Below, in pieces: positions 1 through 5,142 of a stretch of DNA of 5,142 bases. A program made the position numbers and the translations under genes. The notes beneath the pieces are model-generated. The model worked only from the letters and a program-made list of their open reading frames with translations. It made no database searches and had not been told where the DNA came from. Position 1 is the first letter of the stretch. The number at the start of each line of letters is the position of its first letter. Location of the stretch: IMG/VR virus record IMGVR_UViG_2693429584_000012; one strand, given 5' to 3'. The stretch comes from a virus. Lineage: Duplodnaviria > Heunggongvirae > Uroviricota > Caudoviricetes.

Positions 1-65
1 CTTTCCAGAACCATACGGACTGCCCGTTGACGGACTTCAGGGGAAAAACGAGTATTTTTAGTCAT
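1..65 (-). CDS. IS3-family transposase OrfA, N-terminal fragment (partial; continues past window start)
   Basis: Reverse complement of 1..65 translates from ATG (complement of 63..65) as MTKNTRFSPEVRQRAVRMVLE, which I recognise as the start of IS629/IS1203-type OrfA. No stop within the window. Not in the ORF track because it runs off the edge. Confidence 0.8.
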   Translation of the reverse strand, partial: MTKNTRFSPEVRQRAVRMVLE

Positions 66-119
66 CCTGTTTACCTCTTTCTCAGGAAGTTTAGTCTCCA
101 GGATTCCCGGGGCGGTTCA
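1..119 (-). mobile_element. IS3-family insertion sequence (IS629/IS1203-like), terminal ~119 bp including inverted-repeat end; element continues beyond window start
   Basis: The minus strand of 1..65 encodes a transposase OrfA N-terminus. Reverse complement of 101..119 reads TGAACCGCCCCGGGAATCC, i.e. the element ends with the TG typical of IS3-family termini. Lambda ninB-homologous sequence begins immediately at 120. Identity is recalled from memory, not searched. Confidence 0.8.
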
Positions 120-459
120 AACCATTCAGGAACGCAACCGCAGCTTAGACCAAAACAGGAAGCTATGGGCCTGCTTAGGTGACGTCTCTCGTCAGGTTGA
201 ATGGCATGGTCGCTGGCTGGATGCAGAAAGCTGGAAGTGTGTGTTTACCGCAGCATTAAAGCAGCAGGATGTTGTTCCTAACCTTGCCGGGAATGGCTTT
301 GTGGTAATAGGCCAGTCAACCAGCAGGATGCGTGTAAGCGAATTTGCGGAGCTATTAGAGCTTATACAGGCATTCGGTACAGAGCGTGGCGTTAAGTGGT
401 CAGACGAAGCGCGACTGGCTCTCGAATGGAAAGCGCGATGGGGAGACAGGGCGGCATGA
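120..459 (+). pseudogene. ninB: ninB (lambda Orf146 family) 3' fragment, truncated at its 5' end by the IS insertion
   Basis: Frame 1 from 121 translates TIQERNRSLDQNRKLWACLGDVSRQVEWHGRWLDAESWKCVFTAALKQQDVVPNLAGNGFVVIGQ...[11 protein letters not shown] then stop (TGA 457..459), matching the C-terminal ~112 residues of lambda NinB as recalled. There is no in-frame start codon between the IS junction and the GTG at 241, so the N-terminal ~34 codons are missing from this side. Confidence 0.85.
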
Positions 460-638
460 GACGACAGCGACGAAGTTTCACCGACATCATCTGCGAAAAC
501 TGCAAATACCTTCCAACGAAACGCTCCAGAAATAAACGCAAGCCAATCCCAAAAGAATCTGACGTAAAAACCTTCAACTACACGGCTCACCTGTGGGATA
601 TCCGGTGGCTAAGACATTGTGCGAGGAAAACAAGGTGA
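456..638 (+). CDS. ninE: NinE protein (lambda Orf60 family)
   Basis: ATG at 456 overlaps the ninB stop (ATGA). Translation is [60 protein letters not shown] (60 aa), near-identical to lambda NinE as recalled. The 396 start in the ORF track is an upstream extension inside ninB. Confidence 0.85.
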
Positions 639-805
639 TTGACCAAAATCGAAGTTACGAACAAGAAAGCGTCGAGCGAGCTTTAACGTGCGCTAACTGC
701 GGTCAGAAGCTGCATGTGCTGGAAGTTCACGTGTGTGAGCACTGCTGCGCAGAGCTGATGAGCGATTCGAATAGCTCGATGCACGAGGAAGAAGATGATG
801 GCTAA
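635..805 (+). CDS. ninF: NinF protein (lambda Orf56 family), Cys-rich
   Basis: GTG at 635 overlaps the ninE stop (GTGA) and is preceded by GAGGA at 623..627. Translation is (M)[55 protein letters not shown] (56 aa), matching lambda NinF. The ORF-track start at 593 is a longer, less likely alternative. Confidence 0.8.
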
Positions 806-1418
806 ACCAGCGCGAAGACGATGTAAAAACGATGAATGTCGGGAATGGTTTCACCCTGCATTCGCTAATCAGTGGTGGTGCTCTCCAGAGTGTGGAACCA
901 AGATAGCACTCGAACGACGAAGCAAAGAACGCGAAAAAGCGGAAAAGGCAGAAAAGGCAGCAGAGAAGAAACGACGACGAGAGGAGCAGAAACAGAACGA
1001 TAAACTTAAGATTCAAAAACTCGCCTTAAAGCCCCGCAGTTACTGGATTAAACAAGCCCAACAAGCCGTAAACGCCTTCATCAGAGAAAGAGACCGCGAC
1101 TTACCATGTATCTCGTGCGGAACGCTCACGTCTGCTCAGTGGGATGCCGGACATTACCGGACAACTGCTGCGGCACCTCAACTCCGATTTGATGAACGCA
1201 ATATTCACAAGCAATGCGTGGTGTGCAACCAGCACAAAAGCGGAAATCTCGTTCCGTATCGCGTCGAACTGATTAGCCGCATCGGGCAGGAAGCAGTAGA
1301 GGAAATCGAATCAAACCATAACCGCTATCGCTGGACTGTCGAAGAGTGCAGGGCCATCAAGGCGGAGTATCAACAGAAACTTAAAAAACTGCGAAACAGC
1401 AGAAGTGAGGTTGCATGA
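795..1418 (+). CDS. ninG: NinG (Rap-like recombination-associated protein, lambda Orf204 family)
   Basis: 207-aa ORF starting [52 protein letters not shown]..., near-identical to lambda NinG as recalled. GAGG at 785..788 precedes the ATG at 795. The start overlaps the ninF 3' end. Confidence 0.92.
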
Positions 1419-2080
1419 ATATCTACGAAAGAATTGATGGCAGCAAATACCGAAATATTTGGGTAGTTGGCGATCTGCACGGATGCTACACGAACCTGAT
1501 GAAAAAACTGGAGACGATAGGATTCGACACCAAAAAAGACCTGCTTATCTCGGTGGGCGATTTGGTTGATCGCGGTACAGAGAACGTAGAATGCCTGGAA
1601 TTAATCACATTCCCCTGGTTCAGAGCTGTACGTGGAAACCATGAGCAAATGATGATTGATGGCTTATCAGAGCGTGGAAACGTCAATCACTGGCTGCTTA
1701 ATGGCGGTGGCTGGTTCTTTAATCTCGATTACGACAAAGAAATTCTGGCTAAAGCTCTTGCCCATAAAGCAGATGAACTTCCGTTAATCATCGAACTGGT
1801 GAGTAAAGGAAAAAAATATGTCATCTGCCACGCCGATTATCCTTGTGATAAATACGAGTTTGGAAAGCCAGTTGATCATCAGCAGGTAATCTGGAACCGC
1901 GAACGAATCAGCAACTCACAAGACGGGATCGTGAAAGAAATCAAAGGCGCGGACACGTTCATCTTTGGTCATACGCCAGCAGTGAAACCACTCAAATTTG
2001 CCAACCAGATGTATATCGATACTGGCGCAGTGTTCTGCGGAAACCTCACATTGATTCAGGTACAGGGAGAAGGCGCATGA
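1415..2080 (+). CDS. ninI: Serine/threonine protein phosphatase (lambda PPase, Orf221 family; calcineurin-like metallophosphatase)
   Basis: 221-aa [35 protein letters not shown]...GDLVDRG...GNHE..., carrying the GDxHG / GDxxDRG / GNHE metallophosphatase motifs and near-identical to lambda protein phosphatase as recalled. Its ATG overlaps the ninG stop (ATGA). Confidence 0.95.
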
Positions 2081-2700
2081 GACTCGAAAGCGTAGCTAAA
2101 TTTCATTCGCCAAAAAGCCCGATGATGAGCGACTCACCACGGGCTACGGCTTCTGACTCTCTTTCTGGTACTGATGTGATGGCTGCTATGGGGATGGCGC
2201 AATCACAAGCCGGATTCGGAATGGCTGCATTCTGCGGTAAGCATGAACTCAGCCAGAACGACAAACAAAAGGCTATCAACTATCTGATGCAATTTGCACA
2301 CAAGGTATCGGGGAAATACCGTGGTGTGGCAAAGCTCGAAGGAAATACTAAGGCAAAGGTACTGCAAGTGCTCGCAACATTCGCTTATGCGGATTATTGC
2401 CGTAGTGCCGCTACGCCGGGCGCAAGATGCAGAGATTGCCACGGTACAGGCCGTGCGGTTGATATAGCCAAAACAGAGCAGTGGGGGATAGTTGCTGAGA
2501 AAGAGTGCGGAAGATGTAAAGGCGTCGGTTATTCAAGAATGCCAGCAAGCGCCGCATATCGCGCTGTGACGATGCTAATCCCAAACCTTACCCAACCCAC
2601 CTGGTCACGCACTGTTAAGCCGCTGTATGACGCTCTGGTTGTGCAATGCCACAAGGAAGAGTCAATCGCAGACAACATTTTGAATGCGATCACACGTTAG
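2077..2700 (+). CDS. Q: Late gene antiterminator Q (lambda Q family)
   Basis: 207-aa [67 protein letters not shown]... with a CRDCHGTG...CGRCKGVG zinc-binding motif, essentially lambda Q as recalled. Its ATG overlaps the phosphatase stop (ATGA). Confidence 0.95.
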
Positions 2701-2742
2701 CGCCATGATTGCCACGGATGGCAACATATTAACGGCATAATA

Positions 2743-2790
2743 TTGACTTTTTGAATAACTTTGGGGAAACTTGACACCAATAATGGGCGT
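2743..2790 (+). promoter_or_regulatory. Late promoter pR' with overlapping qut (Q-utilisation) site
   Basis: About 40 bp after the Q stop: TTGACT (2743..2748), a 17-bp spacer TTTTGAATAACTTTGGG, then GAAACT (2766..2771). This aligns position by position with lambda pR' (TTGACT-TATTGAATAAAATTGGG-TAAATT) as recalled. It is followed by TGACACCAATAATGGG, containing a -10-like AATAAT in the position of the lambda sigma70 pause-inducing element. Confidence 0.6.
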
Positions 2791-2912
2791 TTTTTACATG
2801 TCATTGATGAGTCTCAATAACCTGCCGCCGAGTAGTTTTTATGCTCTGAATTGTATTTGTGTAGTAAACATGCTGACTGCAATGTAATAGAGTTTTTTTA
2901 GCCTGTAACCTC

Positions 2913-2962
2913 TTGACGGCATTGAATTGCTTTTGTTATGAGTTGTAAGCCAATGTTATCAT
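2913..2962 (+). promoter_or_regulatory. Candidate sigma70 promoter(s) of the cargo membrane-protein gene
   Basis: Option 1: TTGACG (2913..2918) with an extended -10 TGtTATGAG (2934..2942). Option 2: TTGTTA (2933..2938) with an extended -10 TGtTATCAT (2954..2962). Either would start transcription just upstream of the GGGGTGG Shine-Dalgarno and the ATG at 2980. Predicted by eye only. Confidence 0.35.
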
Positions 2963-2979
2963 CTTGTATTGGGGTGGTT

Positions 2980-3696
2980 ATGAAGGATGGTGCGCTGCTC
3001 AGGAGTTCTTCACTTTTTATTGCCTACATGGGATGCCTTGGATGGGGGAGTGCTTATTTCTATGGATGGGGTACTTCTTTTTACTACGGCTTCCCATGGT
3101 GGATTGTAGGTGCAGGTGTTGATGATGTTGCCAGAAGTTTATTTTTTGCAGTTATCGTCATTGCTATATTTCTTATCGGTTGGGGTATTGGTGTTGTATT
3201 CTTTTTCGCAGTGAAAAGAAAACATTCTATGCAAGAGCTAAATGTATTTCGCCTTTATTTTGCTGTGGAATTATTGTTTGTGCCGGCAATTATTGAGTTT
3301 TCTATATTGAGACAGAAGATTCAGGTACCTCTTTTGCTACTGTCAGCAGCGATTGCGCTGGCGGTTACAATTTCGATAAGATCTTATGGGCGATTTTTAT
3401 CGGTATCATGCTTCTATGATAAGCCATTTATAAAAAAACATTTTTTTGAGATTGTGATGATTGCTTTTGTGGCATATTTCTGGCTTTTTTCATTTCTGAC
3501 AGGATATTACAAACCACAGTTTAAGAAAGAATATGAAATGATTAATTATAATGATGGTTGGTATTATGTTCTTGCTCGTTATGATAATTGTCTGGTTTTG
3601 TCTACTTCTTTCAATGCAGGTAGTAAAAGGTTTGTCATTTATCAATCAGCACAAGATAAGAATCTTCAGGTTGATATTGTAAGGACCAGAATTTAA
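2980..3696 (+). CDS. Hypothetical polytopic inner-membrane protein (cargo/moron gene; about 4-5 predicted transmembrane segments plus a ~65-residue C-terminal soluble domain); function unknown
   Basis: Long ORF in frame 1 ending TAA 3694..3696. The preferred start is ATG 2980, preceded by GGGGTGG 3 nt upstream; the longest-ORF start is ATG 2938, which has no RBS and lies inside the predicted promoter. Hydrophobic stretches include SLFFAVIVIAIFLIGWGIGVVFFFAV, LYFAVELLFVPAIIEFSIL, VPLLLLSAAIALAVTISI and FFEIVMIAFVAYFWLFSFLTGYY. The gene is strongly AT-rich compared with the flanking phage genes. I recognise no homolog. Confidence 0.7.
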   Translation: MKDGALLRSSSLFIAYMGCLGWGSAYFYGWGTSFYYGFPWWIVGAGVDDVARSLFFAVIVIAIFLIGWGIGVVFFFAVKRKHSMQELNVFRLYFAVELLFVPAIIEFSILRQKIQVPLLLLSAAIALAVTISIRSYGRFLSVSCFYDKPFIKKHFFEIVMIAFVAYFWLFSFLTGYYKPQFKKEYEMINYNDGWYYVLARYDNCLVLSTSFNAGSKRFVIYQSAQDKNLQVDIVRTRI

Positions 3697-3829
3697 TTGG
3701 CTGCATAAATAATATTTTAAGTTGCAAGTTGGCTATTCGTAGGAATAGAACCTTAGGCATGCTGAATGCGTTTTCTGAACATTGTTTTATAAACTGTGTC
3801 TGCTTGCTGTTGTGATCCTGCTTTTAGTG

Positions 3830-3940
3830 ATGGTGATGATGGATTTCACCAGCAGGATAATGTTGGTACTGACTGATGGCGCTCTGGTCTGCGGCATTGT
3901 GGTATTGCTGTGGCCGATGATGAAAGAACAGAATGAATAA
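3830..3940 (+). CDS. Candidate small hydrophobic (single-TM) peptide, 26-36 aa depending on start; speculative
   Basis: Frame 2 ORF MVMMDFTSRIMLVLTDGALVCGIVVLLWPMMKEQNE ending TAA 3938..3940. Alternative starts are ATG 3836, 3839 or 3860. It has a hydrophobic core with a charged C-terminal tail. No convincing Shine-Dalgarno; it could be a chance ORF or a gene remnant. Confidence 0.2.
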   Translation: MVMMDFTSRIMLVLTDGALVCGIVVLLWPMMKEQNE

Positions 3941-3943
3941 TTC

Positions 3944-3972
3944 TTGACTTTTTTGTTTACTGTTTATTAAAA
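3944..3972 (+). promoter_or_regulatory. Promoter-like element sharing the ATAAT..TTGACTTTTT core with pR'
   Basis: TTGACT at 3944..3949 followed by a T-rich spacer and TATTAA/TTAAAA -10-like hexamers at 3965..3972. The -35 side resembles the pR' -35 region at 2737..2753. Weak -10; speculative. Confidence 0.25.
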
Positions 3973-4126
3973 AATCAACCGCATGGTGAATCCTCCTTGG
4001 AGGGGCTAAATGATCGAGTTTTAAGGGCACGTAGCGAGTTCTGTTTGATCATTGCAGAACTTAGCGGGAGGCGCCATGCGTACATCACTAATGTTATTTC
4101 CTTCTATCATTTTCCTTGTGAGTTCT

Positions 4127-4153
4127 GGCTGCGCATGGCGCGGCCTTTTTTTT
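4127..4153 (+). terminator. Rho-independent (intrinsic) terminator
   Basis: GGCTGCGC (4127..4134), loop ATG, GCGCGGCC (4138..4145) forms an 8-bp GC-rich stem with one U-G wobble, followed immediately by TTTTTTTT (4146..4153). It lies 87 nt upstream of the nanS-p start. Confidence 0.65.
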
Positions 4154-4239
4154 ATGACCTGCCACTGGCAGATGGTCATCCTGTGATTTGATTCCGCTTC
4201 CGGCTTTTTAACTCTGTTCCTCTACACGGGAGAAATTCG

Positions 4240-5142
4240 ATGTCGATTAAACATTACGATGTTGTCAGGGCGGCGTCGCCGTCAGACCTTGCGGAAAAGC
4301 TGACACACAAACTGAAAGAGGGCTGGCAGCCATACGGCGGATCGGTTGCCATTACGCCGTACACACTGATGCAGGCGGTGGCTATTGAAGGAGAGCCACA
4401 GGTCGGCCCTTCATCTGAGCCGGATTGGTACTACGTCATCGTACTGGCCGGGCAGTCCAATGCCATGGCTTACGGTGAAGGGCTTCCGCTGCCGGATTCA
4501 TACGATGCTCCGGATCCGCGCATTAAACAGCTGGCGCGCCGCAGTACAGTGACGCCGGGCGGGGCTGCCTGCAGATATAACGATATTATTCCGGCTGACC
4601 ACTGTCTGCATGATGTGCAGGATATGAGTACGCTGAATCATCCGAGGGCTGACCTGAGCAAAGGGCAGTACGGCTGTGTCGGCCAGGGTTTACATATTGC
4701 CAAAAAACTGCTCCCGTATATCCCGAATAACGCGGGGATCCTGCTGGTACCATGCTGTCGTGGTGGTTCGGCATTTACCCAGGGCGCGGAGGGGACATTC
4801 AGCGAGTCCACGGGGGCCAGTCAGGATTCGGCACGCTGGGGGGTGGGCAAGCCGTTATATCAGGATCTGATTTCCCGCACAAAAGCGGCATTGCAGAAAA
4901 ATCCCAAAAACGTTCTGCTGGCCGTCTGCTGGATGCAGGGTGAGTTTGACATGAGCGCCGCCACCCACGTACAGCAACCTGCGCTGTTTACAGCCATGCT
5001 GACACAGTTTCGTGCTGACCTCTCCGTGTTTAACGCGCAGTACCATGGTGGCAGTGCTGCAGATGTGCCGTGGGTTTGTGGTGACACGACGTATTACTGG
5101 AAAAATACATACGCTACCCAGTACGACACCGTGTACGGCGGG
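4240..5142 (+). CDS. nanS: Prophage-encoded sialate O-acetylesterase (NanS-p type; DUF1737-like N-terminal domain plus SASA/SGNH esterase domain), 5' partial; continues past window end
   Basis: ATG 4240 preceded by GGGAG at 4228..4232. Frame 1 is open for 301 codons to the window edge: MSIKHYDVVRAASPSDLAEKLTHKLKEGWQPYGGSVAITPYTLMQAVAIEGE...DWYYVIVLAGQSNAMAYGEG..., with the GQSN catalytic-serine block typical of SASA-family esterases. Missing from the ORF track only because there is no stop inside the window. Confidence 0.8.
   Translation, partial: MSIKHYDVVRAASPSDLAEKLTHKLKEGWQPYGGSVAITPYTLMQAVAIEGEPQVGPSSEPDWYYVIVLAGQSNAMAYGEGLPLPDSYDAPDPRIKQLARRSTVTPGGAACRYNDIIPADHCLHDVQDMSTLNHPRADLSKGQYGCVGQGLHIAKKLLPYIPNNAGILLVPCCRGGSAFTQGAEGTFSESTGASQDSARWGVGKPLYQDLISRTKAALQKNPKNVLLAVCWMQGEFDMSAATHVQQPALFTAMLTQFRADLSVFNAQYHGGSAADVPWVCGDTTYYWKNTYATQYDTVYGG

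Follow-up and report, generated by a model that had tools for sequence, protein, structure and literature searches.

IS629 is a 1310-bp insertion sequence of the IS3 family, common in E. coli, that encodes a DDE transposase, OrfAB, made by programmed frameshifting (-1), and that transposes by a copy-out/paste-in pathway through a circular intermediate. IS1203 and IS3411 are isoforms of IS629. The nin5 deletion of phage lambda is viable. In four O157:H7 genomes, 62% of IS629 copies sit in prophages or prophage-like elements (PMC3271280). Many O157 polymorphisms have been attributed to IS629-associated gene inactivation and genomic deletions, and excision of the element is promoted by IEE (PMC9943667, PMC3271280). 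Knockout of a lambdoid prophage gene by IS629 is an ordinary event that is well documented and already known.

Several described copies can be set beside the locus studied here. In the Stx2a phage Stx2_499 (LC567824.1), IS629 interrupts a regulatory gene, and both halves of the gene and a 4-bp target-site duplication (TSD), CCAG, are visible, as in a simple insertion. Two copies in the lambdoid nin region are also simple insertions: IS629 in dam of E. coli 2013C-3264, with the TSD AGG, and an element 97.8% identical to IS629 in ninE of E. coli MLI104K2, with the TSD ATC. Two further copies are rearranged and have no TSD. In E. coli G5 (NZ_CM127462.1), nt 1-222 of ninB are joined to an IS629 copy (99.5% identical); this is a rearrangement, since the element is bordered on its other side by a truncated sitD, an unrelated gene of the chromosome, and there is no TSD. 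In E. coli O145:H28 RM13516, whose prophage is closely related to the one described here, a 5'-truncated O replication gene abuts IS629 and a ypjA-side flank lies beyond. Loss of NinB/Orf itself, as in lambda nin5 and orf (ninB) mutants, is tolerated for lytic growth. The nin5 deletion removes the whole nin block with its terminators, making Q expression N-independent.

The window, by which we mean the whole 5,142-nt stretch of viral DNA analysed here, opens inside an IS629 copy, of which 119 nt (9% of the element) are seen, and passes from it directly into ninB. It resembles Stx2_499 in the sequence of the element over these 119 nt, in the TG...CA ends and in the target, a gene of the prophage early region, but it shows one junction only. 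With the dam and ninE insertions it shares the IS family and the lambdoid nin region, and with the MLI104K2 copy also the antisense orientation, although the target genes are different. G5 has the same gene interrupted in the same orientation, but there the breakpoint lies at ninB nt 222/223 rather than 101/102, and the 5' piece is retained. Whereas nin5 removes the entire block, only ninB is hit in the window, and this prophage may have gained 1.3 kb of foreign DNA between pR and Q.

The first 119 nt match the end of the annotated "insertion sequence: IS3 family IS629" (1310 bp) of Stx2_499 (E 7e-56). They also match its annotated "IS629 transposase OrfA", and OrfA and OrfB are both annotated in that record; reference IS629 copies carry both orfA and orfB. 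The annotated IS boundary in LC567824.1 coincides with window position 119, where the terminus reads ...GGGGCGGTTCA, and the IS629 copy of RM13516 is also 100% identical over this stretch. In a three-copy alignment, the window is identical to two other IS629 copies through ...GGTTCA, and the flanks beyond are unrelated. Reference IS629 starts with TGAACCGCCCCGGG (TGAACC) and ends with CCCGGGGCGGTTCA (GGTTCA), hence the TG...CA ends, and the left inverted repeat in the window forms an imperfect pair with the reference right repeat (Table 1). The transposase genes are directed away from ninB and are antisense to the phage early-right (pR) operon. We assign the element, at the isoform level, to IS629 itself over the 119 nt present; the label "only IS629-like" is ruled out for these 119 nt by their full identity to IS629. 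The sequence-only reading of this DNA had placed the N-terminus of an IS3-family OrfA on the minus strand of 1..65 and a TG...CA-type IS terminus at 119. Both are borne out by the orfA start and by the annotated boundary, and the check set beforehand, a search for an IS3-family match to 1-119, returned IS629.

Table 1. Features of the IS629 end, the truncated ninB gene and the nin-Q block in the window.
Feature	Position	Strand	Basis
IS629 left (orfA-proximal) 119 nt, IS nt 1-119	1..119	-	119/119 identity to annotated IS629, LC567824.1
IS629 left terminal inverted repeat, IS nt 1-25, TGAACCGCCCCGGGAATCCTGGAGA	95..119	-	23/25 match to right end nt 1286-1310
IS629 orfA, first 21 codons, ATG at 65-63	3..65	-	translation MTKNTRFSPEVRQRAVRMVLE
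AAC(C), target bases expected to recur beyond the far IS end if the insertion is simple	120..123		predicted from intact ninB and 3-/4-bp TSDs elsewhere
ninB' pseudogene, ninB nt 102-441; codons 35-146 + stop = 121-459	120..459	+	identity to intact ninB, PF05772, 1PC6
ninE, intact	456..638	+	Pfam NinE PF05322, E 7.5e-42, full length
ninF, intact	635-805	+	ORF, Pfam, near-identical prophage annotation
ninG, intact	795-1418	+	ORF, Pfam, near-identical prophage annotation
Ser/Thr phosphatase, intact	1415-2080	+	ORF, Pfam, near-identical prophage annotation
Antiterminator Q, PF03589-type, intact	2077-2700	+	ORF, Pfam, near-identical prophage annotation

Beyond the terminus, the window is 100% identical to the corresponding part of the intact 441-nt ninB of E. 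coli 2013C-3342 (L001, 2900-3340), the breakpoint with IS629 following nt 101, within codon 34. The translation of 121-459 matches positions 34-131 of the Pfam NinB profile PF05772 (E 2e-43; 147.6 bits against a cut-off of 23.8 bits), with profile positions 1-33 absent. It corresponds to residues 35-146 of lambda NinB/Orf and is identical to PDB 1PC6 at 111 of 112 residues (E 2e-72), the outcome of the comparison with lambda NinB that had been proposed as a check. The earlier counts of about 112 NinB residues kept and about 34 codons lost proved exact. The frame is open from 31 to 459, across the junction, and its first ATG, GTG or TTG in the ORF list is the GTG at 241. What is left of ninB has no ribosome-binding site, no start codon and none of the first 34 codons, whereas a functional NinB/Orf gene would have a start codon, a complete ORF and the elements of the N-terminal fold. 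Orf is a recombination mediator that substitutes for RecFOR, and its N-terminal portion contributes to the RAGNYA DNA-binding fold (Curtis et al., PMC4118853). As read from the DNA, ninB is inactivated: it is a pseudogene because there is no in-frame start codon before GTG 241, and a null one because the N-terminal part of the Orf fold went with the missing 34 codons.

The 72-aa ninB remnant encoded by 241-459 is recorded in 201 blocks, and among the places listed it belongs to a frameshifted or otherwise disrupted ninB with no IS adjoining. The 51-aa ORF that spans the junction (27-182) has no record among exact-protein entries. Positions 1-459 contain no Rfam family or structured RNA, no tRNA and no notable promoter or terminator. 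A different joint was seen in L017 (9203-10219; Logan ERR3330424_168), where an HNH_3/AP2 endonuclease gene (9388-9789) separates a 96-nt 5' remnant of ninB (9203-9297) from a second, divergent ninB start (61-aa ORF, 9791-9976), after which ninB resumes at nt 107 with its ordinary 3' part. The arrangement resembles a homing-endonuclease-type cassette or a mosaic joint, and it lies within ~10 nt of the ninB position at which IS629 abuts in the window.

Megablast of window positions 1-240, with carriers of the junction defined by coverage of at least 80% of the query, found the IS629-ninB junction in none of 5,426 complete E. coli genomes and in none of the phage and plasmid collections. Exact patterns of the junction had no match in GTDB representative genomes, IMG/VR or JGI metagenomes. 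The reciprocal junction, as predicted from intact ninB, is ...CCAATCGTAGTAAC followed by TGAACCGCCCCGGGTTTCC, i.e., ...CCAATCGTAGTAAC(C)TGAACCGCCCCGGGTTTCCTGGAGAG, where TGAACCGCCCCGGGTTTCC... is the right end of IS629 on the plus strand of the window. The corresponding query, ninB ..GTAGTAAC plus TGAACCGCCCCGGGTTTCC (ninB to nt 101-104 plus the IS629 right end), gave only non-equivalent matches in complete E. coli genomes and none in GTDB representatives, JGI metagenomes or IMG/VR. Within the window there is no displaced copy of ninB nt 1-101 and no second IS629 end.

A junction that is unique among all collections searched, in a window whose start lies within a multicopy repeat, a common situation for short-read contigs, could be an assembly artefact: a 119-nt overhang of the IS629 repeat would have been misattached to a ninB contig, with ninB intact in the real genome. 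We regard this as highly improbable because the join coincides precisely with the final base of the inverted repeat of IS629, as transposition yields. Chimeric joins form in shared sequence, and IS629 and ninB share none at the join; moreover, even where a contig breaks off in a repeat, the junction of that repeat with unique sequence is correctly represented.

What lies on the far side of IS629? We slightly favour, at little better than an even chance, a copy that is still a simple insertion in ninB. By the mechanism of the IS3 family, an IS629 circle would have integrated into ninB after nt 101, duplicating AAC or AACC. The DNA to the left of the window would then consist of the remaining ~1.19 kb of IS629, the AAC/AACC duplication, ninB nt 1-104, tR2, ren and the replication genes (O/P). 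The simple insertions in dam and ninE show that two other copies in the nin region have kept this structure. Against a simple insertion, neither junction occurs in any collection searched.

The wider record of IS629 tempers this preference. We surveyed 80 IMG/VR loci encoding IS629 OrfB (L036-L115) together with L002, L003, L024, L029 and L035; these contain 68 distinct full-length IS629-family copies with both flanks readable, mostly in phage or prophage contigs. A TSD is kept in 37 of the 68 (54%; 3 bp in 32 and 4 bp in five), with about one 3-bp flank match expected by chance. It is absent from the other 31 (46%), which counts against a simple insertion here. In the copies without a TSD, the two flanks no longer derive from a single target; one flank has been exchanged by deletion, by inversion or by recombination between IS copies. 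It is because of this division that simple insertion is favoured only slightly for the copy in the window.

The same 31 copies argue for a second reading, in which IS629 inserted at the ninB site, or a copy recombined there, and a later event replaced the far flank, so that IS629 now bounds a deletion or rearrangement. We judge this quite possible, at somewhat less than an even chance. Homologous recombination between two IS629 copies, or excision or deletion promoted by IEE, may have been the route. G5, with ninB nt 1-222 joined in the same orientation to IS629 and then to a truncated sitD, and RM13516, with its truncated O gene beside IS629, are consistent with such events, as are the IS629-linked deletions and IEE-promoted excision described in O157 (PMC9943667, PMC3271280). 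However, nothing within the window points specifically to a deletion, simple insertions slightly outnumber the rest in the survey, and the copies in dam and ninE are simple as well. If the locus is rearranged, ninB nt 1-101, tR2 and ren would have been lost or relocated, perhaps along with the replication and immunity regions, and the segment from nin through Q to the late genes would be left as a non-inducible remnant of a prophage, deprived of its own pR. Overall, the odds are nearly even between a split gene and an IS-bounded deletion or rearrangement, with simple insertion slightly ahead.

The sequence-only reading had gone further. Its core, an IS end abutting a truncated ninB, stands, with the end that of IS629 itself and ninB inactivated. 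Its remarks that ninB is dispensable and that such an insertion is a sign of prophage decay are sensible as background. Unsupported as written is its assertion that the 5' part of ninB necessarily lies beyond the IS, although a deletion or rearrangement was already given there as the alternative that would refute it: the window opens inside the element, the searches returned neither junction, and nearly half of the surveyed copies have no TSD.

Should the copy be a simple insertion, the expected effect would be loss of Orf-assisted recombination with phage viability kept; viability would be expected to survive the loss of ninB because NinB/Orf is an accessory recombination mediator. Expression of Q from pR would then require transcription to pass through IS629. 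A scan of the element found two terminator-like sites in all, against 1.2 expected, i.e., no excess; one of them, a weak site with a 5-bp stem, is on the strand read from pR. Given the lack of an excess of terminator-like sites, inducibility of the prophage despite IS629 is possible if the insertion is simple.

The genes that follow ninB are intact (Table 1), and their order, ninE to Q, is typical of the lambdoid nin-Q block; the ATG of ninE overlaps the ninB stop (ATGA at 456-459). In the window ninB is followed directly by ninE, whereas the best-matching prophages have a dam methyltransferase gene between the two (compare L003, 4337-6176); the dam gene of 2013C-3264 is itself the one interrupted by IS629. 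The window is a mosaic, with 120-2144 at 99.8% identity to one prophage group and 448-5142 at 99.3% to another. NinG has 207 aa here and 200-206 aa in close relatives, the difference lying in a Lys/Glu-rich repeat (window 924-975). The 207-aa variant is rare (30 index blocks, as against 9,212 for the adjacent Q protein), and of the 10 places listed for it, none has an IS, nine have an intact ninB and one (L013) has no ninB. In L013 (4000-4501) and L011 (7342-7833), which have the same NinG variant, a shortened cII (87 aa) lies nearly next to ninF/ninG. Both contigs have undergone a deletion of O, P, ren, ninB and ninE although no IS is present, so this part of the prophage has decayed there in a further way.

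On the 3' side of Q, where Stx phages carry toxin genes, the window has genes for a TfpB-like protein, a DUF3927 protein and a nanS-p-type esterase, and no toxin genes. The first of these encodes a 247-aa multi-pass membrane protein (2953-3696) with the precomputed label PF27470 TfpB, for which our local Pfam copy gave no match. After it come the DUF3927 gene and the 5' part of the nanS-p-type DUF1737/SASA esterase gene (4240-5142), which runs off the window. On the minus strand at 3824-4179, a 132-aa hypothetical gene of relatives (e.g., L025, 11945-12343) is broken into ORFs of 68 aa and 52 aa. Relatives place this gene between the DUF3927 gene and the esterase/holin genes, and RefSeq lists it as a frameshifted pseudogene in RM13516 and 2013C-3264.

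A more extreme outcome, which we think improbable, is that IS629 marks the left edge of a domesticated remnant from which an IS629-mediated deletion has taken immunity, replication and the 5' end of ninB. What persists, ninE-Q, the TfpB-like gene and the nanS-p esterase block, would then be a fixed island of cargo that cannot be induced. Such an island could have an IS629 copy on each side and hence be mobilisable as a composite unit.

What is the significance of this insertion? Only the insertion site is new, being unrecorded in the collections searched. The position of IS629 could serve as a marker for strain typing, because the junction is absent from the 5,426 complete E. coli genomes. For annotation, ninB in this prophage should be entered as an IS629-disrupted pseudogene; beyond that, the insertion has little importance. 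Whether the prophage can be induced depends on the DNA beyond the IS, and the question concerns phage mobility only if there is cargo of interest in the prophage.
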